Counted from the first letter of the stretch, positions 1,253-11,409 are shown. The stretch is DNA of 64,000 nucleotides from an uncultured Acidobacteriota bacterium (GCA_963725075.1 CAVRXA010000004.1:3578-67577); one strand, 5' to 3'. Made by a program: numbers and translations. The notes: generated by a model from the sequence alone, not told the origin.

Positions 1253-1270
1253 TTGTGAATGAAATCCCAA
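1253..1270. promoter_or_regulatory. Rex operator overlapping the rex start codon (autoregulation)
   Basis: TTGTGAA-tgaa-ATCCCAA versus the Rex consensus TTGTGAA-N4-TTCACAA (12/14). Confidence 0.65.
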
Positions 1271-1872
1271 AGGCCACGGTCGTGCGTCTTCCCCGCTACC
1301 TCCGACTGCTCGAAGACCTGGCTTCGTCGAAGGACGTGGTCAGCTCCGAGGAACTGGCGTCGGCGGCAGGCGCCAACGCGGCCAACGTACGGAGGGATCT
1401 CTCCCATCTCGACTTTCATGGCGTCAGAGGCATCGGATACTCCGTCCCCGAGCTCAAAGCGCGCATTCGTCAGGAGCTCGGGATCGCCGAGCGGCAACGC
1501 GTGGCGATCCTCGGAGCCGGGAACCTGGGCCGGGCCCTGGCCAACTACGGCGGGCTCGGTCGCCGAGGCTTCGATGTCGTGGCCCTGTACGACACCGACG
1601 TCCGCAAGATCGGTTCGAAGGTGGGCAGCATCACCATCCAGGACCTGGACCTTCTCGACGGCGATTGCACCTCGAAGAGCTTCGAAATCGCCATCCTCGC
1701 CGTGCCCGCGGTGGCCGCACAACAGGTGGCCGATCGGTTGGTCGAGCACGGAATCCGGTCCATCCTCAATTTCGCACCGGTCCGGGTGAATGTGCCGGAC
1801 AAGGTCTCGGTGCGTCAGGTCGACCTGTCGATGGAGCTACAGGTCCTCAGCTATTACGGCAGCCGGCTCTAG
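1255..1872 (+). CDS. rex: Redox-sensing transcriptional repressor Rex
   Basis: IPKATVVRLPRY N-terminus, VSSEELA, VRRDLS, GVRGIGY, Rossmann GAGNLG, ILNFAP. Confidence 0.95.
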   Translation: MNEIPKATVVRLPRYLRLLEDLASSKDVVSSEELASAAGANAANVRRDLSHLDFHGVRGIGYSVPELKARIRQELGIAERQRVAILGAGNLGRALANYGGLGRRGFDVVALYDTDVRKIGSKVGSITIQDLDLLDGDCTSKSFEIAILAVPAVAAQQVADRLVEHGIRSILNFAPVRVNVPDKVSVRQVDLSMELQVLSYYGSRL

Positions 1873-2235
1873 GCAGAGGACTTTCTCCTGAACCTCCTCG
1901 TACTGGTGCAGCGCCACCAGGAAGGCGAGGAAGAGCACCAGCGACACCAGCAGGTAGGTGATCGGGATGATCCTGATCTCGAACGCGTTCAGCCCTTCGA
2001 TGTCGGCCGGCTTGGGGCCACGTGGGGCGTAGACCACGAAAAGCATCGAGGTGATCGTCAACCAGCCGAACACCGCGGCGCCGGTCACCAGGAACCCCAG
2101 CCGCTTGCCGAGGTTGGTGTAGTTGAACAGATAGATCGAGCCGTAGAACAGCGCCACGGCGGCGATGGTGAGGATGATCCCGGTGACGAAGAGGTTGGCC
2201 GAGAACAGCGACCGGAAGAACTCACGGAAGAACAA
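1837..2235 (-). CDS. Small membrane protein (3 predicted TM helices), last gene of the bc-type operon
   Basis: TTG start at 2235 with GGAGG RBS overlapping the cyt c 3' end; three hydrophobic segments. The true stop may be TAG at 1869-1871 if one A is extra at ~1884. Confidence 0.7.
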   Translation of the reverse strand: MFFREFFRSLFSANLFVTGIILTIAAVALFYGSIYLFNYTNLGKRLGFLVTGAAVFGWLTITSMLFVVYAPRGPKPADIEGLNAFEIRIIPITYLLVSLVLFLAFLVALHQYEEVQEKVLCLEPAAVIAEDL

Positions 2236-4144
2236 CGGTGGCCTCCTTCCCGTCCATGTTCCCACCACGCAGATAGCGGGCGAGCAACTCGATGTCCTCC
2301 AGGCTCAGGCTGGCGCCAAAAGCCGGCATTCGACCTGTGCCGAACCCGTTGAGGCCGTAGGGCGTCTCGGCCTCGGAGCCCCTTATCAGGAATTGGACCA
2401 GTAGGTCCTGCGCCGGGTCCACGTTCGCGTCACCGAACTGCACAGTCGGCCGACCGTCCCACAATGCCGGCCCAAATCCTCCCGAGCCCGCCTCCTGCGT
2501 GTAGGGGACACCTGCGCTGTAACCGGCGGTGTGACATCGGGCGCAGTTGGAATTGAACAGCCCGACTGCCCGCTCTGCTTCCTCGGGCGAGGACGCCATC
2601 GCCTCTGCCACCCCGGCGAAATCGATCGAATACAGCTGGGCTTGCTGGGACTCCTCGAGGTAGGCCAGGCCGCCCAAGGCGGTCTCAGTGAGATCCGCCT
2701 GGTTCTGCTCCGTCACCGAGAGGGTGGTCGCCATCGACTCCAGGTTGCCTACCAACCTGTCGGCCGTGGCGGCGTCAGGCTCCCCGCCGACCGAGGCCGG
2801 GTTGGTCGGATCGAGTGTGACCTGGGTGACCCCGGCCGGCGTGGTGGCGGTGATGGCGGCCTCGATTTGACCGTTGATGTCGGCCTCGGCGCCGCTCGAC
2901 AACCCGTCACCGTCGGGGTCGGAGCCCTCCTCGACCGCCGTGGTCGCCTCGGCCGCCAGGTCGGCGGCCCCTTCCACTGGCTCCTCGGCAGCTGCCGCCT
3001 CGTCCAGCGCCGCCACGAGCGCGTTGGCGCCATCGAGATCCTCGATCGGGCCCGGGACCTCGATGCCGGCTGTCTCCGCTGCAGCGCGGGTCTCTTCGAG
3101 GGCGGTCAACGAAGCCGGGCTGAGCCCGACAGCTGAGTCGACTGTCCCTTCCTCCATGGCCAACTCGATGGCCTCGATGTTCGTCGTGACAACCGGGTCG
3201 GTCTGACTTGCGAGCTCCAAGGCGGCGAGGGCATCGTCGGCCAGCTCGGCGTCGGCCACCTCGGGGTCGAGGGCGATCGGCTCCATGATCTGGAATCCGG
3301 CTACTGCCTCGGCTGAGATCTCACTGAGCTCCGTCTCGGCTGCATCGGAGATGCCGTCGGCGTCGGTGTCGATGCCGGTGCCTGCTCCGTCCAACACCTC
3401 TCTCGCCCGTGTGGCCATTGGAATCACCAGTGCGGCATCTGCGGGTGCCGACTCGATCTGAGCCACCACCTGACTCTGCTCGACAATGGCGGCCTCGACC
3501 GTTGCGTCGGCGGTGGCGAGCCTGTCTAGCGCAGTGTTGATCCCGGGCTCCACGTCGGCAAGGTTCTCGTCCTGCGTCACCTGAATGGTTGCCAGGTAAT
3601 TGACCACGTCTTCCACTTGCTGGTCGTTGAGCGGTCCACCGCCGGGGATGCCCCATGCCGGCATGGGAGTGTTGCCGCGGCCGTACGTGACCCAGAAGTT
3701 GACCTCGTCCTCGGCGTATCTGAAGAAGACGTCGTTGAGCGACGGAGCCGCCCACTCGACTGCGATTCCCGAGCGCTTCTCGACGTAAGGGGCGACGCCA
3801 CCCGACCCCTCCGGGCCATGACAGTTGAAACAGCCGAACTCCTCGACGAGGTGCTCGCCCCGGTCGATCGAGCCCTCGGCGAACTCCACGACGAAGCCCT
3901 CCTGTCGCTGCTGTTCGGTGAGGAAGTAGAGCGGGAGCGAAATGGCGAGGAACGCAGAGAAGGCAATCGCCGCCTTCTGCCCGCCCTCGAGCCGGCGGGT
4001 CTCGATCTTCTCGTCGTCGATACCAGGCCGAAGATTGGGAGCGACCTCCTCGCCACCCCGGTTGCGAATCGCCGAGACGAAGAGCATGCCCAGCCAGGCG
4101 ATCCCTGCGACCAGGGCGATGACCGTGATGATGTTGGCGGTCAT
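2222..4144 (-). CDS. Membrane-anchored diheme c-type cytochrome with long acidic inter-heme insert
   Basis: Two CxxCH motifs (CFNCH, CARCH), each followed by an MP(A)WG/MPAFG axial-Met motif; two N-terminal hydrophobic helices. Confidence 0.9.
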   Translation of the reverse strand: MTANIITVIALVAGIAWLGMLFVSAIRNRGGEEVAPNLRPGIDDEKIETRRLEGGQKAAIAFSAFLAISLPLYFLTEQQRQEGFVVEFAEGSIDRGEHLVEEFGCFNCHGPEGSGGVAPYVEKRSGIAVEWAAPSLNDVFFRYAEDEVNFWVTYGRGNTPMPAWGIPGGGPLNDQQVEDVVNYLATIQVTQDENLADVEPGINTALDRLATADATVEAAIVEQSQVVAQIESAPADAALVIPMATRAREVLDGAGTGIDTDADGISDAAETELSEISAEAVAGFQIMEPIALDPEVADAELADDALAALELASQTDPVVTTNIEAIELAMEEGTVDSAVGLSPASLTALEETRAAAETAGIEVPGPIEDLDGANALVAALDEAAAAEEPVEGAADLAAEATTAVEEGSDPDGDGLSSGAEADINGQIEAAITATTPAGVTQVTLDPTNPASVGGEPDAATADRLVGNLESMATTLSVTEQNQADLTETALGGLAYLEESQQAQLYSIDFAGVAEAMASSPEEAERAVGLFNSNCARCHTAGYSAGVPYTQEAGSGGFGPALWDGRPTVQFGDANVDPAQDLLVQFLIRGSEAETPYGLNGFGTGRMPAFGASLSLEDIELLARYLRGGNMDGKEATVVLP

Positions 4145-5019
4145 GCCCCGGCCACGGCGCTGATGCAGCTAGGTCCTTGCGGGTACTGGACGAGCAACAC
4201 CGGCGCCCGGGGCGTCTGGATGATCGTGCCGGTGCGAATGATGAGGTTGCCGCCCTGGTTCTCCACCACGAACCGGTCCAGGTTGCGCGGGGCGGGACCG
4301 CCGAAATATTGGCCGATGGCGTTGTACCTCGACCCGTGACACGGACATTCGAATCCCTGCGATGGGGCGCACCACGGCACCCGACACCCGAGGTGGACAC
4401 ATCGCATGTAGAGGGCCATCAGACCGTCGGTCTCCACGCCCTGGCCCTCGAACTGGTCGGAAAGCTCCTCGGGAGCAGGGACCAGGTAGGCCCGGGCCTC
4501 GGGAATGAACAGAGGGAGCACGGCGCCATCGGGGGTGAATACCTGAGTGCGCAGGTCGGAGATGGGGCCGGCGTCGATATCGGCGCCGAAGCCACCCGTC
4601 AGCTTGGGCCAGAAGAAGGCGAGGTAGTAGAGACCTTGGGCGGCGAGAAACGTCCCGAAGGTCGCAGCGATTGCCCGGTTGAAGAACTGACGCCGGCTGA
4701 CCCCGCCTTCCTCCGGAGACACCTCGACGATGCGCTGGGTCTCCAGGATCTCGACGACCGCATCCTCCTCGACCTCAACCGGTTCGGGCTCGACCTCGGG
4801 GGCCTCTTCCTCTACAGGCTCAGCTGCCTCCTCGACACGGGGCGGGATCAGAACGGCGGTCGACGACCGGTCGGCGGCCCGGGTCTCCGACGAGACCCCG
4901 GCCAGCGGATCGGCTTTCTCGACGGATTGGGAGCGGCGGTAGGCGACGGCAAATGCCCCGGCCGCCCCGAGGATCGCCACCACGGCGACCGCAATGAGGG
5001 CGGCGTTGGTCAGGGTCAT
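4141..5019 (-). CDS. petC: Rieske [2Fe-2S] subunit of the Rieske/cytochrome b complex
   Basis: CVHLGC and CPCHGS boxes; Tat-like SRRQFF before the TM helix. Confidence 0.92.
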   Translation of the reverse strand: MTLTNAALIAVAVVAILGAAGAFAVAYRRSQSVEKADPLAGVSSETRAADRSSTAVLIPPRVEEAAEPVEEEAPEVEPEPVEVEEDAVVEILETQRIVEVSPEEGGVSRRQFFNRAIAATFGTFLAAQGLYYLAFFWPKLTGGFGADIDAGPISDLRTQVFTPDGAVLPLFIPEARAYLVPAPEELSDQFEGQGVETDGLMALYMRCVHLGCRVPWCAPSQGFECPCHGSRYNAIGQYFGGPAPRNLDRFVVENQGGNLIIRTGTIIQTPRAPVLLVQYPQGPSCISAVAGA

Positions 5020-6074
5020 TCGAATTGCACCCAGTCCTTCAGGTCGTCGAAGTAGACACCGTCCTTCCAGGGATAGGAGAAGTTGAAGCCGAGGCCCCGG
5101 AAGAGGACGCCAAAGATCGTGAGTGTGGCGGCCCCCGCCAGGAACACCGAGTAGAGGGCGATGGCGAACTTGCGGTCACTGGGCCGCGTGGAGGGGTTCT
5201 TGTCGACGTAGGGGATCAACCAGAAGCCAATGAACCCGGTGATGGTCGGAATGGTCACCCCCGCAATCTGGGGATCGAAGTAGGAGAGCAGCTCCTGGAG
5301 GCCGAGGAAGTACCACGGCGCCTTCGACGGGTTGGGAGTGGCGTTGAAGTTGGCCGGGTCGAGCAGCGGGGAGTGAATGACCACAGACATGATCACTACG
5401 AGACCGGTGATCGCCAGCAGGGCACCGAACTCCATGAGCATCAGGTGGGGCCACGTGTTGACCTTGTCCGTTGGCTCGGCCTTGACCGTCTGGATGGCCC
5501 TGGCCTTGACCACGGTGAGCAGACGCTGCGTCCGCACGCCCTCGGGCGTGCCCTTCGGTGGCACCGTGGGACGGGTGCTCACCACAGCGGCCACCTTGCC
5601 GTTCCCGGCGCCGTTCCCGGACCCCGCGCCGTCGGTGGCGCCATCGCCCTCAGGGGCTGGTCGATCCTCCACTGCTGTCGCCACTGCGGCGGCGGCTGGT
5701 TCGACTGCTTCTACCTCCTCCTCCGATGGCGGCGCTTCGGTGGGTGGGGCGGGAGGCACATCAGCCTCGGTGTCGGCCACGATCACCGGCTCGGTCTCGG
5801 CTGCCGGCTCGACCGGCGCCTCTTCGGCCGGGGCGGGCTCATCATCGACCGACTCGACAGCCTCCTCGATCTCGGCGGAACGCTCTGCGGACTCCTCCAT
5901 CTCAGCAGCGACACTCTCCTCGGACTGGGCCGCTGGCGCGGGCTCGGCCGACGGCGGTGGGATGGGCGGAGCCTCACCCTTCATCTCGGCCAGCACCTGT
6001 TCGACGGGAAGGCCCAATGCCTTGGCCTTGGCCTCCGCCGACCTCCTGAGGAGACTCTCTGGAATTTCTGTCAT
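5016..6074 (-). CDS. petD: Cytochrome b subunit IV (PetD-like C-terminal half) with acidic N-terminal extension
   Basis: KVNTWPHL, NPSKAPWYFLGLQELL (PEWY-equivalent Qo motif), IPYVD; ATG at 6074 with GGAG RBS. Confidence 0.88.
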   Translation of the reverse strand: MTEIPESLLRRSAEAKAKALGLPVEQVLAEMKGEAPPIPPPSAEPAPAAQSEESVAAEMEESAERSAEIEEAVESVDDEPAPAEEAPVEPAAETEPVIVADTEADVPPAPPTEAPPSEEEVEAVEPAAAAVATAVEDRPAPEGDGATDGAGSGNGAGNGKVAAVVSTRPTVPPKGTPEGVRTQRLLTVVKARAIQTVKAEPTDKVNTWPHLMLMEFGALLAITGLVVIMSVVIHSPLLDPANFNATPNPSKAPWYFLGLQELLSYFDPQIAGVTIPTITGFIGFWLIPYVDKNPSTRPSDRKFAIALYSVFLAGAATLTIFGVLFRGLGFNFSYPWKDGVYFDDLKDWVQFE

Positions 6075-6084
6075 GACGACTCCT

Positions 6085-6861
6085 TTAGAGGGGCCCGGAG
6101 ATGCCGCCGTCCTTGCGCACTCGCCAGAAATGCACGGCAAGGAAGATCACGAGGATGAACGGGAACGCCAGGACATGCAGGACGTAGAAGCGGAGAAGGG
6201 TGGCGCCGGACACCTCGACACCGGCCAGTAGGGCGAATTTCACCTCATTGCCCACCACGGGAACGAAGCCGGCCATGTTGGTGCCCACCGTGACCGCCCA
6301 CAGCGCCAGTTGGTCCCAAGGGAGGAGGTAGCCGGAGAAGGAGAGCAGCAGGGTGAGGAAGAGGAGCACCACGCCGACGACCCAGTTGAACTCGCGCGGC
6401 GGCTTGTAGGCGCCGTGATAGAAGACCCGGCTCATGTGGAGGAACACCGAGAGGACCATGAGATGGGCCCCCCACCGATGCATGTTCCGCACCAGCGAGC
6501 CGAACGCCACATTGGTCGACAGAGCCTCGATGTCGGCATAGGCGGTCTCGGCCGAGGGCGTGTAATAGAACATGAGGAAGATCCCGGTGATGGTGAGGAG
6601 GATGAAGAGAAAGAAGCTGAGACCCCCCAGGCAGAGCGTGTAGGACAGCTTGACGCCGTGCCGCTTCACCTTCACCGGATGGAGGTGATAGAGCACGTTG
6701 TTCATCACCACGTATGACCGGTTCCTCGGGCTGTCCGAGTAGCCCTTCTTGAAGGGCGAGCCAGGGCGGAGGATCGACTCGGCCACCTGGGAGCCCCAGA
6801 GCTTGTCGCTCACCTCCTTGATCTTTTCTCCGATGCCGGTCTTACCGTTGCCGTTGGCCAA
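6085..6861 (-). CDS. petB: Cytochrome b6-like N-terminal cytochrome b
   Basis: Heme His pairs MHRW...FLH and LH-x14-H; LCLGG (heme ci Cys); GYLLPWDQ. Confidence 0.93.
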
Positions 6862-6869
6862 GCCGCCTC

Positions 6870-7319
6870 CTACCAGCGCATCCCGTAGGCATATCCATTT
6901 TTGAAGTCACGCTGCCCGGTGTCGAAATCCCAGGGGCGGCGGTCGAGACCCAGCTCCGCGGCCTGCTCGGCGAGCGACCCCTCGAACTTGCCCAGTGTGA
7001 TCACATTCGTTGGGCAGCGGTCGACACAGAGGGCGCATCGCGTGCATTCGTCCTCGTCGACCACGAAGAACCCGAGGTTCTGCGGGTCCTCACCGGGGTG
7101 GTCGACGTTGACACCCTCGGTGATGGCGTCCAACGAGAGATAGTGGATGCATTTCCAGGGGCAGATGTCGACACAGCCCTCGCAGAGGATGCACTCCGAC
7201 TGGTCGATGTGGAGGAACTGCTTCGGCCGCAGCTTGTCGGTGAAGTAGTCGCCCTCGACGACAGCGAGCTGATAATCGTCGCGGTACGGGGGAGTCTCGT
7301 CGACGACACCCTTGGGCAT
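6870..7319 (-). CDS. 2x[4Fe-4S] dicluster ferredoxin-like protein
   Basis: [12 protein letters not shown] and [12 protein letters not shown]. Confidence 0.92.
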
Positions 7320-7924
7320 CAGCCCTCACCCCTGACCAGCGGCCGCCCGTAGGGGGAGCGGGCCGGCGCCTTGTCGGCCGATGGAGGCGGACCCTTTGTC
7401 ATCTTCTGCAGCTGCAAGGCAAACACGGCCGCCACCCCAAGCATCACCAGGTGATACCCCATCGAGATCGAGTCCTTGATGGCAGCCCAACTGAGCTGTA
7501 CGTCGTTGCCCAACACCAGGACCGGCGGGATGGTGACGGCCACCCGTTGTGAGGACCAGTCGAGATCGGTCTGGGCGAAGTTGAGCCATTCCGAGGGAAC
7601 CATCCCGAAGATGATGACGAGCTCGATCCAGGTCACGAAGGAAGCGAAGAGGGCGCGGGCCCAGGTCATTCTCTGGTTCAGCACCCAGACGAACAGTGCC
7701 CCGACCACGAGCATCTGGGAGGCGCCGAACACCACCAGATAGCCGACACCTTTCAGCAAGTGGTTGCTCGGTATCCAATCGAAGATGCCCGCGTCCTGCT
7801 CGGGCGGGAGGCTCGTGTAGTGGATCCAGATCACCGCCACCACGAGACCGACGAAGCCCAGACCGAGCAGTCCCCATCCGATGGTCTTGCGTCTGCTGTC
7901 GCTCAGTTCTGCGAGGCGATACAT
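7319..7924 (-). CDS. Hypothetical membrane protein (4 TM), first gene of the bc-type operon
   Basis: Four hydrophobic helices; stop overlaps the ferredoxin start; high-GC coding pattern. Confidence 0.75.
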   Translation of the reverse strand: MYRLAELSDSRRKTIGWGLLGLGFVGLVVAVIWIHYTSLPPEQDAGIFDWIPSNHLLKGVGYLVVFGASQMLVVGALFVWVLNQRMTWARALFASFVTWIELVIIFGMVPSEWLNFAQTDLDWSSQRVAVTIPPVLVLGNDVQLSWAAIKDSISMGYHLVMLGVAAVFALQLQKMTKGPPPSADKAPARSPYGRPLVRGEG

Positions 7925-7943
7925 CTCTCGTCTTCGGGCACGG

Positions 7944-7961
7944 TTGTATACCTGTTCACGT
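7944..7961. promoter_or_regulatory. Putative Rex operator upstream of the bc-type operon
   Basis: TTGTATA-cctg-TTCACGT versus TTGTGAA-N4-TTCACAA (10/14), 20 nt upstream of the ATG at 7924. Confidence 0.45.
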
Positions 7962-7996
7962 CGTTTCTACCACAACCCGGGGCTCGTAAGAGAACC

Positions 7997-8051
7997 AGCG
8001 AACCCAGGGTTCTGGACTTCGGTGAGCGGTGCCTGCAACCCTGGGTTCGCT
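7997..8051. repeat. Perfect 15-bp inverted repeat with 25-nt spacer in the divergent promoter region
   Basis: AGCGAACCCAGGGTT (7997-8011) / AACCCTGGGTTCGCT (8037-8051). Confidence 0.85.
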
Positions 8052-8055
8052 AGTT

Positions 8056-9543
8056 ATGCTCCCGCCGTCCCGTTCCGCGACGAGGGAACCCTTGGCCGCA
8101 ACCCAAACTGCAGACATCAGGGCCCTCCTCGGGGCCGGAGATGAGGACCGCGTCGCCGTCGCCCACTTCCTGGTAGGGGCCCTCTTCCTGGTGCTGGCCG
8201 GTGTCTTCCAACTCCTCGCCCTCTTCTCGTTGCGGTTCGCCGGGCTCTCCCCGATCAGCTACGGCCGGGCCGAGTCGTTGGCCAACATCACCGTCATGCT
8301 CGGCTTTCTCGTGCTGACGCTTGCCGGTGGCGTCTATTACGTCCTGCCCCGGCTCACAGGCGCGCGACTCTGGCGAAAGGAGCTGGCCTACCTCGGGCTG
8401 CTCGGCGTCTCGGGTCTCGTGGTGCTCGACCTTCTGGCCGTGGTCTTCGGTCTCGGTGAGGGTCGACAGCCGTTTGGCCTGCCCTGGTGGCTCCACCTCC
8501 CGATGCTGGCGGTGCTCACCATTCCGTTCGCCGTCACGATGATGACCATCCGGCGCCGGGAGGAGAAGCGGAGTTTCGTCACCCTTTGGTTCGTCATGGG
8601 CGGCGTGGCCTGGCTGCCATTGCTGTACTTCGTCTACACGGCGGGCAGCCTGCCCTTCGTGGACTCGTTGGGTGCGGCGTACTCCGACGTCTTCTTCTCG
8701 GCCGGATTCGTCACCCTCTGGGTGTTCACCGTGGGCAGTGGGCTCTTCTACTACACCCTGGTCAAAGGGCTCGACATCCCCCTCGCCTCCCGCCAGCTGG
8801 CTTCAGTCGGCTTCTGGTCACTCGGCTTCGCCGCCGCATGGTGGGGGTCGGCGCAGCTCGTCTTTGGCCCCGGGCCGGGTTGGATCGACGGGGTGTCGGC
8901 TGCCCTGGGCCTGGCCTTCCCCATCGGCGCCCTCGCCAATGCCGCCAATGCCTCGCTGACCCTCCAGGGGCATTGGGAGGAGTTGAGGGACAAGCCGGGT
9001 GTTGTCTCGGGCGTCGTCGGTCTCTATCTGGGGGTGGCCGTGGCCATCCTGGCCAGTTTCGCCGCCTTCCCCTCCGTCGGATCGGTGACCGCACTCACCG
9101 CCTACTGGGAAGCGATCGAATACGTGGCTCTGTACGGCGTCGGCGTGCTGCTCGCCGCCAGCGTCGTCTTCGAGGCATTGCCCAGGTTGGCTGGCCGCGA
9201 GCCGGCCACATTGGATCGTCCGCGGTCCTTCAATCGGTGGACCGTCGTCGGGGTGGGCGGTGTCGGGGTGAGCATGATCGCGGCCGGGTTGGTCAGCGGT
9301 TACTCGTGGGTCGCGGGGTCGAACAGCGCCGCCTACGTCAACGCGGGGGAGGGCTGGGCCGCCGGGGCGGGGGCAGCCGACGTCCTGATGCTCGTCGCCG
9401 TTGGCTTCGGCATCGTGGCCTTCCTCGGACAACTTGCGTACGCCGCCACCGTGATCGGGACGGTCACGAGCGGCAAGGCCGTCCCCCAGGAGGTTCTGGT
9501 CTACGGCCCCGACCCTGATAGCGACGAGGACGCCGATGAGTGA
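8056..9543 (+). CDS. cbb3-type oxidase subunit I (CcoN)-like polytopic membrane protein lacking the canonical His ligands
   Basis: ~12 TM helices with CcoN-like landmarks ISYGR, YYVLPRLTG, LWF, FYYTLVK, GFWS..W.G, VFEALPRL; precedes a CcoO-like gene. Confidence 0.75.
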   Translation: MLPPSRSATREPLAATQTADIRALLGAGDEDRVAVAHFLVGALFLVLAGVFQLLALFSLRFAGLSPISYGRAESLANITVMLGFLVLTLAGGVYYVLPRLTGARLWRKELAYLGLLGVSGLVVLDLLAVVFGLGEGRQPFGLPWWLHLPMLAVLTIPFAVTMMTIRRREEKRSFVTLWFVMGGVAWLPLLYFVYTAGSLPFVDSLGAAYSDVFFSAGFVTLWVFTVGSGLFYYTLVKGLDIPLASRQLASVGFWSLGFAAAWWGSAQLVFGPGPGWIDGVSAALGLAFPIGALANAANASLTLQGHWEELRDKPGVVSGVVGLYLGVAVAILASFAAFPSVGSVTALTAYWEAIEYVALYGVGVLLAASVVFEALPRLAGREPATLDRPRSFNRWTVVGVGGVGVSMIAAGLVSGYSWVAGSNSAAYVNAGEGWAAGAGAADVLMLVAVGFGIVAFLGQLAYAATVIGTVTSGKAVPQEVLVYGPDPDSDEDADE

Positions 9544-10363
9544 GCTGAGTGCTGCCGCCGCTGCCGCGCTCGGCATCCCCGAAGCCATCGTGCAGCGCTC
9601 AGCCGCGGCCCGGGCTGAAGAAACCGGCATGACCGTGGACGAGGTGTTGGCCGCCTGGGCCGGTGGAGGAGACATCCCGCCACCGGCGGCACCTGCTCCC
9701 GTCGAGCCAGATGCGGCAGAGGAGCCGACCGCGCCTGCCGATGAGCCGGCGCCGGCGCCTGCGTCTTCGGCACCGACCCCTGTCATCGAGGTTCCTTCCG
9801 CCCCCGTCGTCGGAGCGACGGCTGCTCCTGGCAAGCCACCGGTCCTGGTCGGAGAGGCCGACAACCCGATCGCCGTCTTGGTCGGTGCCGTGGGTCTGTT
9901 CGTCGCCCTGTTTCTGGTTGGTGTCGTCGGCCCCGCGTTGCCTACCGAGAACCCCGGGGCGCGGACCAGTGACCTGCCCTACACCGAGACGGCCCTGCAC
10001 GGGCAGGAGATCTACCAGTCGGTCGGTTGTGCGTCCTGTCATACCCAGATGGTGCGTCCCGTGGTGGCGGATGTCGGTCTCGGGGCTGTGTCTCTGAACG
10101 ACACCAATCAGGTGTTGGGGACACGCCGTTTCGGCCCCGACCTGTCCAATGTCGGGGCGCGAGTCTCCGCCAGCCAGATCGAGGCGATCATCCTCGGGCT
10201 CGACGACCATCCCTCCCTTTCCCTTTCATCAGAAGATCTCGATGCCCTGGTGGCGTATCTGGTCGAGTCGGCCACGCTCGAGGAAGCCCCACCTGGTGAG
10301 CCGACCGAAGAGGAGCCCGCCCCAGAAGGTGACGTGCCCACCGAGGAGACCGCCGCGTCATGA
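9536..10363 (+). CDS. ccoO: cbb3-type subunit II (CcoO)-like monoheme cytochrome c
   Basis: GCASCHTQMVRP and GTRRFGPDL resemble the CcoO motifs GCxxCHSQxIRP and GSKRTGPDL; one TM helix. Confidence 0.8.
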   Translation: MSELSAAAAAALGIPEAIVQRSAAARAEETGMTVDEVLAAWAGGGDIPPPAAPAPVEPDAAEEPTAPADEPAPAPASSAPTPVIEVPSAPVVGATAAPGKPPVLVGEADNPIAVLVGAVGLFVALFLVGVVGPALPTENPGARTSDLPYTETALHGQEIYQSVGCASCHTQMVRPVVADVGLGAVSLNDTNQVLGTRRFGPDLSNVGARVSASQIEAIILGLDDHPSLSLSSEDLDALVAYLVESATLEEAPPGEPTEEEPAPEGDVPTEETAAS

Positions 10364-11409
10364 GCGATCTGAGCGCCGCCGCAGCCGCCCTCGGCATCCC
10401 GGAAGCCATCGTCCAGCGCTCGGCTGCCGCCCGTGCCGCCGAGACAGGGATGACGGTCGACGAGGTGCTGGCAGCCTGGGCCGGGGGCGGGTCCGTGGCC
10501 GGGTCGCCGGCAGCACCCTCGGAGGAGGCGCCGGCCGCTTCGGCCGAGGCACCGGCAGCAACCGAGGAAGAAGCTCCCCCCTCCCCGCCTGCGGCGGTAC
10601 TCCCCCCTTCGGGGGGAGAAATGGCCGAGCCTGTGGCCGCGGTGCCCTCCGGCCCGGTGACCCGATCTCCTGTCCCAGCCGAGGTGACCGCCGCCGAGGC
10701 TGCCGGGCTGCCCGAGGTGATCACCGTCCCCACGGCGGGCATCAGGGAGCGGACCAATCTCGCCATCCCACGCTGGTTGGCCGCGGTGATGCTGATCATC
10801 CCCGCCTTCGCCCTCTTCGCTCTGGGCGGTTCCGCCACCGGTGAGTGCGGTGAGAACACCGAGCTAGCCACCAACGTCATAACCGGCCAGGTGGTCAACT
10901 GTGACGGGACCGAGTTCACCGGCTCGGGTGCCGGTGGCGGGGGCGGCGACTTCATCGCCATGGGAGAGGACGTCTATCTCAACGTGGCCAGCTGCGACGG
11001 ATGTCATGGCGCCCAGGGCCAAGGCGGGGTCGGTCCGGGCTTCTCGGGGGTAGTCACCACTTTCGGTTCCTGCACCGATCACATCGAGTGGGTCACGCTC
11101 GGTTCGGTCGGATTCCAGGGCGAAGGCCGGTCGACATACGGCGACACCGACAAACCGATCGCTGGAGGTATGCCGGCATTCGGCACGACTCTCACCGAGG
11201 AGCAACTGGCCTCGGCGGTCGCCTTCGAGCGGGTCCGCTTCGGTGGCGCCGATCCGACAGAGACTCTCACCGACTGCGGCCTCGCCCCGGCGGAGGGCGA
11301 GGAGGGAGAGGCTCCCGGCGAGACCACACCCGACGGCGAGCCGCCGGCGGAGGGGGAAACGACGACCACGGTGAGCGGCGCAGCGGCCGCGCTCGCACCG
11401 GCCTCATAG
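10360..11409 (+). CDS. Membrane-anchored monoheme cytochrome c (CcoP-position subunit)
   Basis: CDGCHGAQGQGGVGP, GGMPAFG axial Met, one TM helix; ATGA overlap with the upstream gene. Confidence 0.88.
   Translation: MSDLSAAAAALGIPEAIVQRSAAARAAETGMTVDEVLAAWAGGGSVAGSPAAPSEEAPAASAEAPAATEEEAPPSPPAAVLPPSGGEMAEPVAAVPSGPVTRSPVPAEVTAAEAAGLPEVITVPTAGIRERTNLAIPRWLAAVMLIIPAFALFALGGSATGECGENTELATNVITGQVVNCDGTEFTGSGAGGGGGDFIAMGEDVYLNVASCDGCHGAQGQGGVGPGFSGVVTTFGSCTDHIEWVTLGSVGFQGEGRSTYGDTDKPIAGGMPAFGTTLTEEQLASAVAFERVRFGGADPTETLTDCGLAPAEGEEGEAPGETTPDGEPPAEGETTTTVSGAAAALAPAS
10575..10621 (+). repeat. 47-bp palindromic (REP-like) element, copy 1, in-frame within the cytochrome c gene
   Basis: 43/47 identical to 23014-23060; two hairpins CCGCC-tgc-GGCGG and CTCCCCCC-ttc-GGGGGGAG. 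Confidence 0.8.

Follow-up and report, generated by a model that had tools for sequence, protein, structure and literature searches.

The stretch of DNA analysed here (GCA_963725075.1, CAVRXA010000004.1:3578-67577; 64,000 nucleotides (nt), henceforth the window), which is filed under an uncultured Acidobacteriota bacterium, carries an operon of seven genes for a Rieske/cytochrome b complex, in which a gene encoding a ferredoxin with two [4Fe-4S] clusters lies directly upstream of the gene for a b6-type cytochrome b. All seven genes are encoded head to tail on the minus strand, and positions are given in the numbering of the whole stretch. Protein families were called with Pfam and NCBIfam profile searches, which confirmed the five redox proteins of the operon, while the membrane proteins of 201 and 143 residues encoded by its first and last genes returned no Pfam or NCBIfam family match, even at E<=1. 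From first to last, the genes are as follows.

7319..7924, minus strand: protein of 201 residues with four predicted transmembrane (TM) helices; open reading frame, first gene of the operon, no family
6870..7319, minus strand: 2x[4Fe-4S] ferredoxin, 149 residues (Pfam Fer4 families)
6085..6861, minus strand: cytochrome b6, 258 residues, four-helix type (Pfam PF00033, NCBIfam, PDB alignment)
5016..6077, minus strand: subunit IV (PetD-like), 353 residues (Pfam PF00032; NCBIfam ExtQ/PetD)
4141..5019, minus strand: Rieske [2Fe-2S] protein, PetC-like, 292 residues (Pfam/NCBIfam)
2222..4144, minus strand: membrane-anchored dihaem cytochrome c, 640 residues (Pfam/NCBIfam)
1837..2268, minus strand: protein of ~130-143 residues with three predicted TM helices; open reading frame, last gene of the operon, no family

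Open reading frame calls located all of these genes where the original prediction had put them, and the span of 2222-7924 that it gave for the operon agrees with these placements, save that the last gene (1837-2268) lies partly beyond it. The stop codon of the 201-residue protein gene overlaps the start of the ferredoxin gene (TGATG), the ferredoxin stop codon is followed by an 8-nt gap containing GGAGG and then by the TTG start codon of b6, an AGGAG after the b6 stop codon precedes the ATG of subunit IV at 6077, and 4-nt ATGA overlaps are found at both the subunit IV/Rieske and the Rieske/cytochrome c junctions. The start codon of the last gene is uncertain; a GTG at 2268 would give a 47-nt overlap with the cytochrome c gene. 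Inspection of the junction sequences inside the operon found no terminator-like or convincing promoter-like site. The overlapping or abutting starts and stops, together with the Shine-Dalgarno sequences, thus indicate translational coupling, and both the junction overlaps and the profile searches bear out the earlier proposal that a dicluster ferredoxin and two family-less membrane proteins are coupled into the operon.

Loci in which the ferredoxin is 97-100% identical to that of the window belong to metagenome-assembled genomes of Acidimicrobiia, several of which are labelled Acidobacteriota, and the host, a soil bacterium, is itself represented by an Acidimicrobiia metagenome-assembled genome (Actinomycetota). 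Its assembly comprises 2.9 Mb and is 89% complete, with a contamination of 4.9%. Apart from a near-identical copy on contig C5, this assembly yielded no PF00033 cytochrome b other than the b6 protein. The ferredoxin, b6 and CcoN-like genes are doubled on contigs C4 and C5 with 99-100% identity, and this doubling probably represents strain-level or assembly redundancy and not a true duplication. With respect to haem-copper oxidases, one strong match was obtained (514 bits, contig C15), as well as a match of 70 bits to the divergently encoded CcoN-like protein. Since the operon encodes the only cytochrome b found and a true haem-copper oxidase is encoded elsewhere, it is taken to specify the housekeeping complex III of its host and not a specialised extra. 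Actinomycetota use menaquinone as their quinone.

Conservation and relatives of the ferredoxin

The ferredoxin contains two CxxCxxCxxxCP motifs, which are flanked by a 34-residue N-terminal extension and a 39-residue C-terminal tail, with an insert of ~30 residues between the clusters; neither a signal peptide nor a TM helix was apparent on reading the sequence, no predictor having been run. Across 133 loci, none of the eight cluster cysteines varies. Within the order, identity amounts to 89.9% for the ferredoxin versus 88.4% for b6, with conservation values of 0.91 for the N-terminal extension, 0.90 for the C-terminal tail and 0.90 for the cluster core, while at class depth identity is 58% for the ferredoxin versus 76% for b6. 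Databases refer to this ferredoxin as NuoI, PreA, ferredoxin or '4Fe-4S binding protein'. Its identification as NuoI was rejected, as it scores 43.5 bits against TIGR01971, for which the cut-off is 113, and the true NuoI is encoded between NuoH and NuoJ in the nuo operon on contig C14. Two apparent ferredoxin-cytochrome b fusion proteins (P0350 and P0329) were likewise discarded, being frameshifted or truncated gene calls that provide no evidence of a natural fusion.

The genetic neighbourhood of the ferredoxin was compared among 80 close relatives, each locus representing another species of Acidimicrobiia, and across a phylum sample of 401 Actinomycetota genomes, in which a b6 orthologue was counted at E<1e-100. 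The order of the genes for the 201-residue protein, ferredoxin, b6, subunit IV, Rieske protein and cytochrome c is unchanged in 80/80 Acidimicrobiia species loci. Furthermore, the ferredoxin gene lies immediately upstream of b6 in all of 29 further Acidimicrobiia loci and in all of 18 loci from ~12 other families, with subunit IV, Rieske and cytochrome c genes following b6 wherever the available flank is long enough. Among the 401 genomes, the ferredoxin was detected in 157 and the b6 orthologue in ~161. The ferredoxin is encoded directly upstream of b6 in ~96% of the b6-bearing genomes sampled from the deep Actinomycetota classes, and this position is held across classes whose ferredoxins are only 35-40% identical. 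The co-conservation of the ferredoxin with petB, the absence of which the original prediction had named as one refuting observation, is therefore strong, both among close relatives (80/80) and phylum-wide (157 versus ~161 genomes). Exact look-up identified Ilumatobacter coccineus, Egicoccus halophilus, Nitriliruptor alkaliphilus and Euzebya pacifica as cultured carriers, where the protein bears the annotation 'NuoI' or '4Fe-4S binding protein'. The ferredoxin family is narrow, a search of 1.84 billion representative proteins having yielded 128 representatives at E<=1e-10, and the few named distant representatives of the stand-alone ferredoxin are all Actinomycetota, although its absence elsewhere is not thereby proven.

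The nearest matches outside this family exhibit ~39-47% identity over ferredoxin residues 35-120, i.e., over the dicluster core, a stretch that takes in the inter-cluster insert and the 'CPW/Y-x-CI' context. The seven long non-family matches listed are proteins of 551-685 residues, matched within their C-terminal domain, and the three of these that were checked with Pfam contain Fer4_20, Pyr_redox_2 (FAD/NAD(P)) and Fer4 dicluster domains. Identity between the ferredoxin and the C-terminal ferredoxin domains of those GltD-like proteins that were aligned amounts to 30-38%. In the reverse direction, the window ferredoxin is the best match of the GltD-ferredoxin protein P0382 in the host genome (44% identity over the domain core), where the matches to P0382 are limited to this ferredoxin and NuoI. 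Named GltD-like members derive from Planctomycetota (Thermoguttaceae), Chlamydiota and Anaerolineae, and in 3/3 out-of-phylum contexts the GltD-like gene is located directly beside genes for a Rieske protein, cytochrome b, subunit IV and a multihaem cytochrome c. The cytochrome b of these loci is 47-55% identical to the window b6, and one of the loci possesses the same APWY motif at the Qo site (see below).

A full-length GltD-like homologue is also encoded by 19 of the 401 Actinomycetota genomes (50-57% identity over residues ~10-590), one of which belongs to the window's own family. In each of the five in-phylum loci that were fetched, the flavoprotein-ferredoxin gene is located immediately upstream of a second set of cytochrome b, subunit IV, Rieske and cytochrome c genes; being placed upstream of a paralogous cytochrome b, it thus occupies the same slot as the stand-alone ferredoxin. 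In a cytochrome b tree, the ferredoxin-linked b6 proteins form one clade (support 92/94) and the in-phylum flavoprotein-linked proteins another (support 96/95), the two being sister to each other with weak support. The paralogous operon keeps the APWY motif and the equivalent of b6 residue His59, the latter being present in every flavoprotein-linked cytochrome b examined, and is devoid of both the CxGG cysteine in its cytochrome b and the candidate haem-ci Glu in its subunit IV. In the window, Pfam searches found no FAD/NAD(P) flavoprotein domain (Fer4_20 plus Pyr_redox_2) in the operon, and the second operon is absent from the window genome. Judging from these alignments, the ferredoxin corresponds, as a free-standing protein, to the two-cluster domain at the C-terminus of NAD(P)-oxidoreductase subunits. 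The paralogous flavoprotein operon, for its part, represents an anammox-type complex in presumably aerobic actinobacteria.

The cytochrome b complex and known systems

As had been predicted, cytochrome b is split between two genes, one encoding a b6-like protein of 258 residues (PF00033) and the other a subunit IV of 353 residues (PF00032). The best PDB matches of b6 are the chloroplast and cyanobacterial b6 proteins (E ~1e-46), with actinobacterial QcrB at ~1e-22, and its C-terminus reads GISGPL, as in the b6 proteins of the PDB. The predicted haem ligands are His128/His142, with 13 residues between them, and His229/His244, with 14. The helix-D histidines are separated by 14 residues in b6 and by 13 in bc1. 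Cys77, which is part of the sequence T-L-C-L-G-G, aligns with the haem-ci cysteine Cys35 of 1q90_B and 6rqf, and the CLGG motif is kept in 126/126 loci whose b6 match spans it. The 14-residue spacing of the helix-D ligands and the cysteine in LCLGG, both of which had been noted earlier, are thus recovered, and the complex is predicted to carry a Qi-side haem ci. Covalent attachment of haem ci has been demonstrated only in Bacillus, heliobacteria and oxygenic phototrophs (PMC4122944).

Two further positions of b6 are conserved, namely His59 in the N-terminal motif Y-H59-L-H-P, which is invariant in 134 loci, and Arg247 in H-F-W-R247, which is invariant in 128 loci. In subunit IV, the Qo motif K-A-P-W-Y-F is found in 108/108 loci, and the sequence W-P-H-L-x3-E216-F is one of the features that are invariant or nearly so over 100-134 loci, Glu216 being a residue that could serve as a haem-ci ligand. 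A Glu beside the Phe40-equivalent position has been proposed as haem-ci ligand in Firmicutes, and the window Glu adjoins that same position. In models of the complexes of the anammox bacterium Kuenenia stuttgartiensis, haem cN is likewise ligated by a Glu (PMC12954380).

The Rieske protein contains the cluster boxes CVHLGC and CPCHGSRY together with an RRQFF Tat-type motif. The Ser and Tyr of box II are present in 66/66 Acidimicrobiia loci and in 14/17 loci of other classes, and C-P-C-H-G-S-(K/R)-Y is kept in the large majority of loci. Both residues raise the potential of a Rieske cluster. The protein also possesses an extra N-terminal TM helix and a ~90-residue acidic linker, predicted to be cytoplasmic, ahead of RRQFF and the usual anchor helix. 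The cytochrome c is of the class-I type, with haem motifs CFNCH and CARCH separated by an acidic spacer of ~330 residues, and is syntenic across close and class-wide loci.

The complex resembles b6f and the b6c complexes of Bacillus and Heliobacteria in its four-helix b6 plus subunit IV, CxGG cysteine, 14-residue spacing, PetC-like Rieske protein and GISGPL terminus, yet it is not a cytochrome b6f proper, as its acceptor is a 640-residue dihaem cytochrome c and its operon contains no PetA-like or PetG/L/M/N genes. The Qo motif is also different, being APWY in the window and PEWY or PDWY in b6f and b6c. To our knowledge, neither b6f nor Firmicute b6c operons include a dedicated iron-sulphur (FeS) subunit. 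With the QcrCAB complex of Actinomycetia (Mycobacterium, Corynebacterium) the window system shares its phylum, a dihaem cytochrome c acceptor and, presumably, menaquinone and an aa3-type oxidase, whereas QcrB is unsplit, lacks the CxGG cysteine and has PDWY as its Qo motif, and QcrCAB includes no ferredoxin. Consistent with this, b6 scores 114 bits against the QcrB-type profile NF050120, the cut-off of which is 500.

In contrast, b6 attains 301.8 bits against the NCBIfam ExtP equivalog, i.e., above the cut-off of 290. The Geobacter proteins ExtP and ExtQ (NF040969/NF040970) belong to the so-called APWY clade, with which the window shares both the split cytochrome b and the A-P-W-Y sequence, and the Qo motif of its subunit IV places the window system in this clade. 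The window, unlike Geobacter, lacks the extHIJKLMNOPQS context (porin, rhodanese, multihaem cytochromes) nearby (PMC5877670), and the haem-ci cysteine motif is of the T-L/F/Y-C-L-G-G type in the window but WCMGG in the ext type. A score above the cut-off without ext context therefore points to membership of the clade and not to a function in selenite or tellurite reduction. This presents a hazard for annotation, since the ExtP equivalog would cause PGAP-style pipelines to label b6 as a selenite/tellurite-reduction protein, just as the ferredoxin is being named NuoI or PreA.

Split, CxGG-bearing cytochrome b of the APWY type has previously been reported for Rubrobacter, Patulibacter, Conexibacter and Ilumatobacter by Kao & Hunte in 2014, who listed 'Rubrobacteridae' and Ilumatobacter in the APWY clade and made no mention of a ferredoxin (PMC4122944); short cytochrome b sequences of Rubrobacter and Conexibacter were also described by Dibrova in 2017, again with no ferredoxin being mentioned (PMC5600118). 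The b6f/Firmicutes-type traits that had been contrasted with the unsplit QcrB of Actinomycetia are thus real, but a split b6 of this type in that phylum is already in the literature (PMC4122944, PMC5600118). The statement that Rubrobacter and Conexibacter have 'TLGS instead of CxGG' (PMC5600118) is inapplicable here, since the cysteine is invariant in this operon type, and probably refers to another copy. A stand-alone ferredoxin beside b6 was not found described in the full-text literature, in which subscription papers were only partly covered, and it is the ferredoxin that is new here, the split APWY-type b6 having been published in 2014. The suggestion of Kao & Hunte that APWY marks reverse operation (PMC4122944) does not sit well with the housekeeping role of the operon in an apparently aerobic host, for which no other complex III was found and which encodes a true haem-copper oxidase.

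A close published parallel is provided by the anammox complexes encoded by Kuste4569-4574 and Kustd1480-1485 of Kuenenia stuttgartiensis, the NAD(P) oxidoreductase subunits of which, Kuste4570 and Kustd1483, are located on the cytoplasmic side (PMC12954380). AlphaFold 3 models of these complexes display four FeS clusters leading from haems bN/cN to FAD by way of a predicted additional haem at the interface, the ligand of which is His43 or His62 from the two cytochrome b monomers (PMC12954380). Their Rieske potentials are +303 and +335 mV, in combination with menaquinone (PMC12954380). These complexes go back to a proposal by Kartal et al., and the evidence that their FeS subunit is physically associated with the membrane complex is a complexome study (de Almeida et al. 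2016) cited in PMC12954380. The arm has been proposed to act as an exit for electrons (PMC12954380).

The window system shares with the anammox complexes a split b6-like cytochrome b, a subunit IV and a Ser/Tyr Rieske protein alongside menaquinone, as well as an FeS subunit encoded beside cytochrome b, which in Kuenenia is located on the cytoplasmic side. The window ferredoxin thus has both adjacency to cytochrome b and homology to proteins with the domain architecture of this FeS subunit, the Kuenenia sequences themselves lying outside the alignment. An N-terminal His motif in cytochrome b is also common to both, His59 as the counterpart of the interfacial-haem His being a positional guess. 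Unlike the anammox complexes, the window system has no FAD/NAD(P) domain and retains, as a protein of 149 residues, only the two clusters nearest to cytochrome b. Further differences concern the c-type partner (a dihaem cytochrome c in the window, multihaem or HAO-like in anammox), the TM helices of subunit IV (three versus five) and the setting, the window host being apparently aerobic with a single complex III found, while the anammox complex is one of several specialised ones.

Proposed role and direction of electron flow

In textbook Rieske/cytochrome b complexes, both quinol electrons stay within the membrane cycle. Two ideas by which the low-potential branch would communicate with the cytoplasm, namely electron transfer from ferredoxin to haem cn of b6f and the production of NAD(P)H by anammox complexes, are unproven, partly because the organisms or the assays are hard. 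The feeding of haem cn of b6f by ferredoxin or FNR is a hypothesis of long standing (PMC5600118).

It is proposed that the seven genes encode a menaquinol:cytochrome c reductase, namely a Rieske/cytochrome b complex that is of the b6c type and belongs to the APWY clade, and that the ferredoxin is a peripheral subunit of the cytochrome b6 dimer, bound at its cytoplasmic (n) side. Through the two [4Fe-4S] clusters of the ferredoxin, the cytoplasm would be wired over a short distance to the low-potential chain, the latter consisting of haems bN and ci and possibly an extra haem between the two invariant His59 residues, thereby providing a side port on an ordinary Q-cycle enzyme. What the sequences show is the set of genes and their motifs, the co-conservation and homology of the ferredoxin, and a position equivalent to that of the flavoprotein arm; the physical binding, the cluster potentials, the interfacial haem, the direction of flow and the partner are inferred. 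That the ferredoxin acts as such a bound electron port on the cytoplasmic side is considered likely on the basis of these comparisons. The N- and C-terminal segments, which AlphaFold 2 does not fold on their own yet which are as conserved as the core, show a pattern that fits docking segments. The idea of electron entry or exit at the Qi side, as raised in the original prediction, gains real support from homology as far as a cytoplasmic port is concerned, whereas nothing singles out haem ci as the point of contact, electrons in the anammox models being routed via bN/cN and a predicted interfacial haem.

With regard to direction, the port may work mainly as an exit, which is mildly favoured, albeit at somewhat less than an even chance. 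In this scheme, when Qi cannot take the second electron, that electron would pass to a soluble low-potential acceptor such as ferredoxin or flavodoxin. The combination of a high-potential Rieske signature (Ser, Tyr) with low-potential menaquinone implies b haems of very low potential, an argument that has also been made for Kuenenia. More broadly, a two-cluster port on the cytoplasmic face that links bN/ci with the soluble low-potential pool may be an integral part of the housekeeping complex III in a wide range of aerobic Actinomycetota, namely Acidimicrobiia, Nitriliruptoria/Euzebyales and several uncultured classes; this generalisation, drawn from sequence comparison, is tentative and rather doubtful.

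Several observations weigh against a bound, conducting port. At phylum depth the ferredoxin diverges faster than b6 (37% versus 70% identity), and its AlphaFold 2 monomer is poor, with a mean predicted local distance difference test (pLDDT) value of 53 and both tails unmodelled. A GltD-type flavoprotein partner was not found in the 89%-complete genome, which also gave no PF14691 (Fer4_20) match, and no residue of the window b6 could be assigned to the Arg that touches the interfacial haem in the Kuenenia models. With a functional Qi site, electrons on bN have a steeply downhill path to menaquinone, which ought to win over the uphill step to a [4Fe-4S] cluster, and this weakens the case for an exit in particular. 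Finally, at least four genomes (three of family f57 and one of family f14) lack the ferredoxin both beside b6 and genome-wide (E<1e-15), and a fifth genome (G164), the locus of which was outside the examined set, has no ferredoxin match genome-wide either. At the ferredoxin-less f57 and f14 loci the gene for the four-TM protein immediately precedes b6, and the remainder of the operon is retained. As the f57 cases are nested inside the ferredoxin-bearing clade of the cytochrome b tree, they represent secondary losses; the ferredoxin is therefore accessory, and the core function of the complex does not need it.

A reversed direction would leave the architecture of the complex unchanged. Reduced ferredoxin, e.g., from 2-oxoacid:ferredoxin oxidoreductases, would then pass electrons through the clusters to bN/ci and on to menaquinone at Qi, and the complex would be the respiratory counterpart of the ferredoxin:plastoquinone reductase that has long been postulated for cyclic flow through b6f. 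All evidence on binding applies equally to this reading, and every step in it, unlike those of an exit, is downhill, from ferredoxin at ~-420 mV to menaquinone at -74 mV (discussed in PMC12954380). The strict retention of the haem-ci cysteine and the subunit IV Glu in the ferredoxin-type operon, and their loss in the NAD(P)-reductase paralogue, also fit a port that feeds Qi. A 2-oxoacid:ferredoxin oxidoreductase is indeed encoded in the host genome, but as it is present in both ferredoxin-bearing and ferredoxin-less genomes it does not track the ferredoxin. Moreover, an entry port has no need of the high-potential Rieske signature, and the homologous anammox arm has been proposed to be an exit (PMC12954380). 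On balance, entry is regarded as possible but unlikely.

It is distinctly improbable that the ferredoxin is bound but does not conduct, i.e., that it is a structural cap, a sensor of redox state, O2 or NO, or an assembly helper, for example in the attachment of haem ci. Its dispensability in some lineages and the lack of a partner gene in the operon or the 89%-complete genome would be in keeping with such roles, as would the putative Rex redox sensor that is a conserved neighbour (see below) and the two family-less membrane proteins of the operon, which could themselves be assembly factors. The CLGG cysteine, however, is retained in all four of the ferredoxin-less loci examined, which means that the ferredoxin is not required to keep the haem-ci site and that haem-ci attachment would be independent of it; a role in haem-ci maturation was accordingly rejected as unlikely. 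The eight cluster cysteines are, in addition, invariant across the phylum, the homologues are electron-transfer domains wired to flavin (PMC12954380), and assembly factors rarely match a catalytic subunit in conservation.

Free dicluster ferredoxins are typically 55-80 residues long. That the protein is an ordinary soluble carrier which is merely co-transcribed, or a mis-annotated NuoI paralogue, with no physical association in either case, is very improbable: the absence of a TM segment, the database names NuoI, PreA and ferredoxin and an AlphaFold 2 monomer showing only a generic dicluster core speak for it, but its 149 residues exceed the size of such free carriers, its family-specific extensions are conserved like the core, its position upstream of b6 is kept across classes that are 35-40% identical, a flavoprotein-fused homologue fills the same slot in the paralogous operon, and the real NuoI is encoded in the nuo operon.

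If the proposed port is real, the enzyme would act as a quinol-driven, bifurcating reductase of ferredoxin or, alternatively, as a ferredoxin:menaquinone reductase. In both cases it would offer a natural model, in cultured organisms, for two contested processes, namely the feeding of haem cn by ferredoxin during b6f cyclic flow and the release of low-potential electrons by the Rieske/cytochrome b complexes of anammox bacteria. The arm is here reduced to two clusters beside cytochrome b, on the sole complex III found in common soil, marine and freshwater Actinomycetota, and its carriers include cultured aerobic isolates of Ilumatobacter, Egicoccus, Nitriliruptor and Euzebya. Natural controls are provided by the ferredoxin-less f57 and f14 relatives, which amount to natural knock-outs, and by the paralogous operon, which has the full flavoprotein but not the haem-ci cysteine. 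Taken together, natural controls and cultured carriers render the question directly testable.

Neighbouring genes and further observations

Three further features adjoin the operon.

7925..8028, no strand: divergent intergenic region between the b6 operon and a cbb3-like operon, containing one arm of a 19-nt inverted repeat
8029..11409, plus strand: divergent operon for a CcoN-like protein and two cytochromes c, the first of them CcoO-like (Pfam/NCBIfam; synteny)
1255..1872, plus strand: putative Rex-type redox-sensing repressor (from reading of the translation), convergent with the end of the b6 operon

The 201-residue protein has four predicted TM helices and conserved motifs MTWARA, VPSEWLNFAQTDLDWS and, at its C-terminus, SPYGRPL. 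Its gene is present upstream of the ferredoxin in 80/80 loci and is weakly detectable in other classes. The AlphaFold 2 model of the protein (pLDDT 80) comprises four helices and a beta-hairpin loop, and a Foldseek comparison of this model with the PDB returned nothing better than E = 0.8. Positions 7319-7400 encode the strongly conserved end of the protein, S-P-Y-G-R-P-L-V-K/R-G, which lies just before the ferredoxin start. This SPYGRPL tail, predicted to be cytoplasmic from a reading of the topology, could be a contact for the ferredoxin. The three-TM protein at the other end of the operon was detected in 58/80 loci, with a mean identity of 80% there, and is detectable in other classes.

Subunit IV consists of a small N-terminal helical module, a ~160-residue linker rich in Ala, Pro and Glu, and a three-TM core. 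The helical module (EIPESLLRRSAEAKAKA, encoded at 5975-6077) has relatives in the divergent operon (9536-9667 and 10360-10488), where they form the N-termini of its CcoO-like protein and second cytochrome c. Other classes possess a variant of the module, D-Q-x-V-Y-D-x-L-I-x-x-G-K-S-E-R-I-A-R-A-K-A-K-A, which is at times duplicated, and the module of subunit IV is also present in ferredoxin-less lineages.

The divergent cbb3-like operon keeps the window's order relative to the b6 operon, as judged by synteny. When its CcoN-like protein (8029-9543) was compared with the cbb3 structure 9g83_t, the histidines for haem b, haem b3 and CuB were found to be replaced (by N, AQ and E/Y, respectively). 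The two arms of the 19-nt inverted repeat, at 7993-8011 and 8037-8055, are 95% complementary and flank a 25-nt spacer; the repeat lies across the start of the CcoN-like gene and could be an operator or a 5' hairpin.

The rex gene is syntenic in 48/80 close loci and in several other classes. A search for Rex operators returned no match in the promoter region of the b6 operon (7925..8028), while a Rex-operator-like site with 2 mismatches (TTGTGAATGAAATCCCAA) at 1253-1270 overlaps the start of rex itself, which suggests that this gene is autoregulated.

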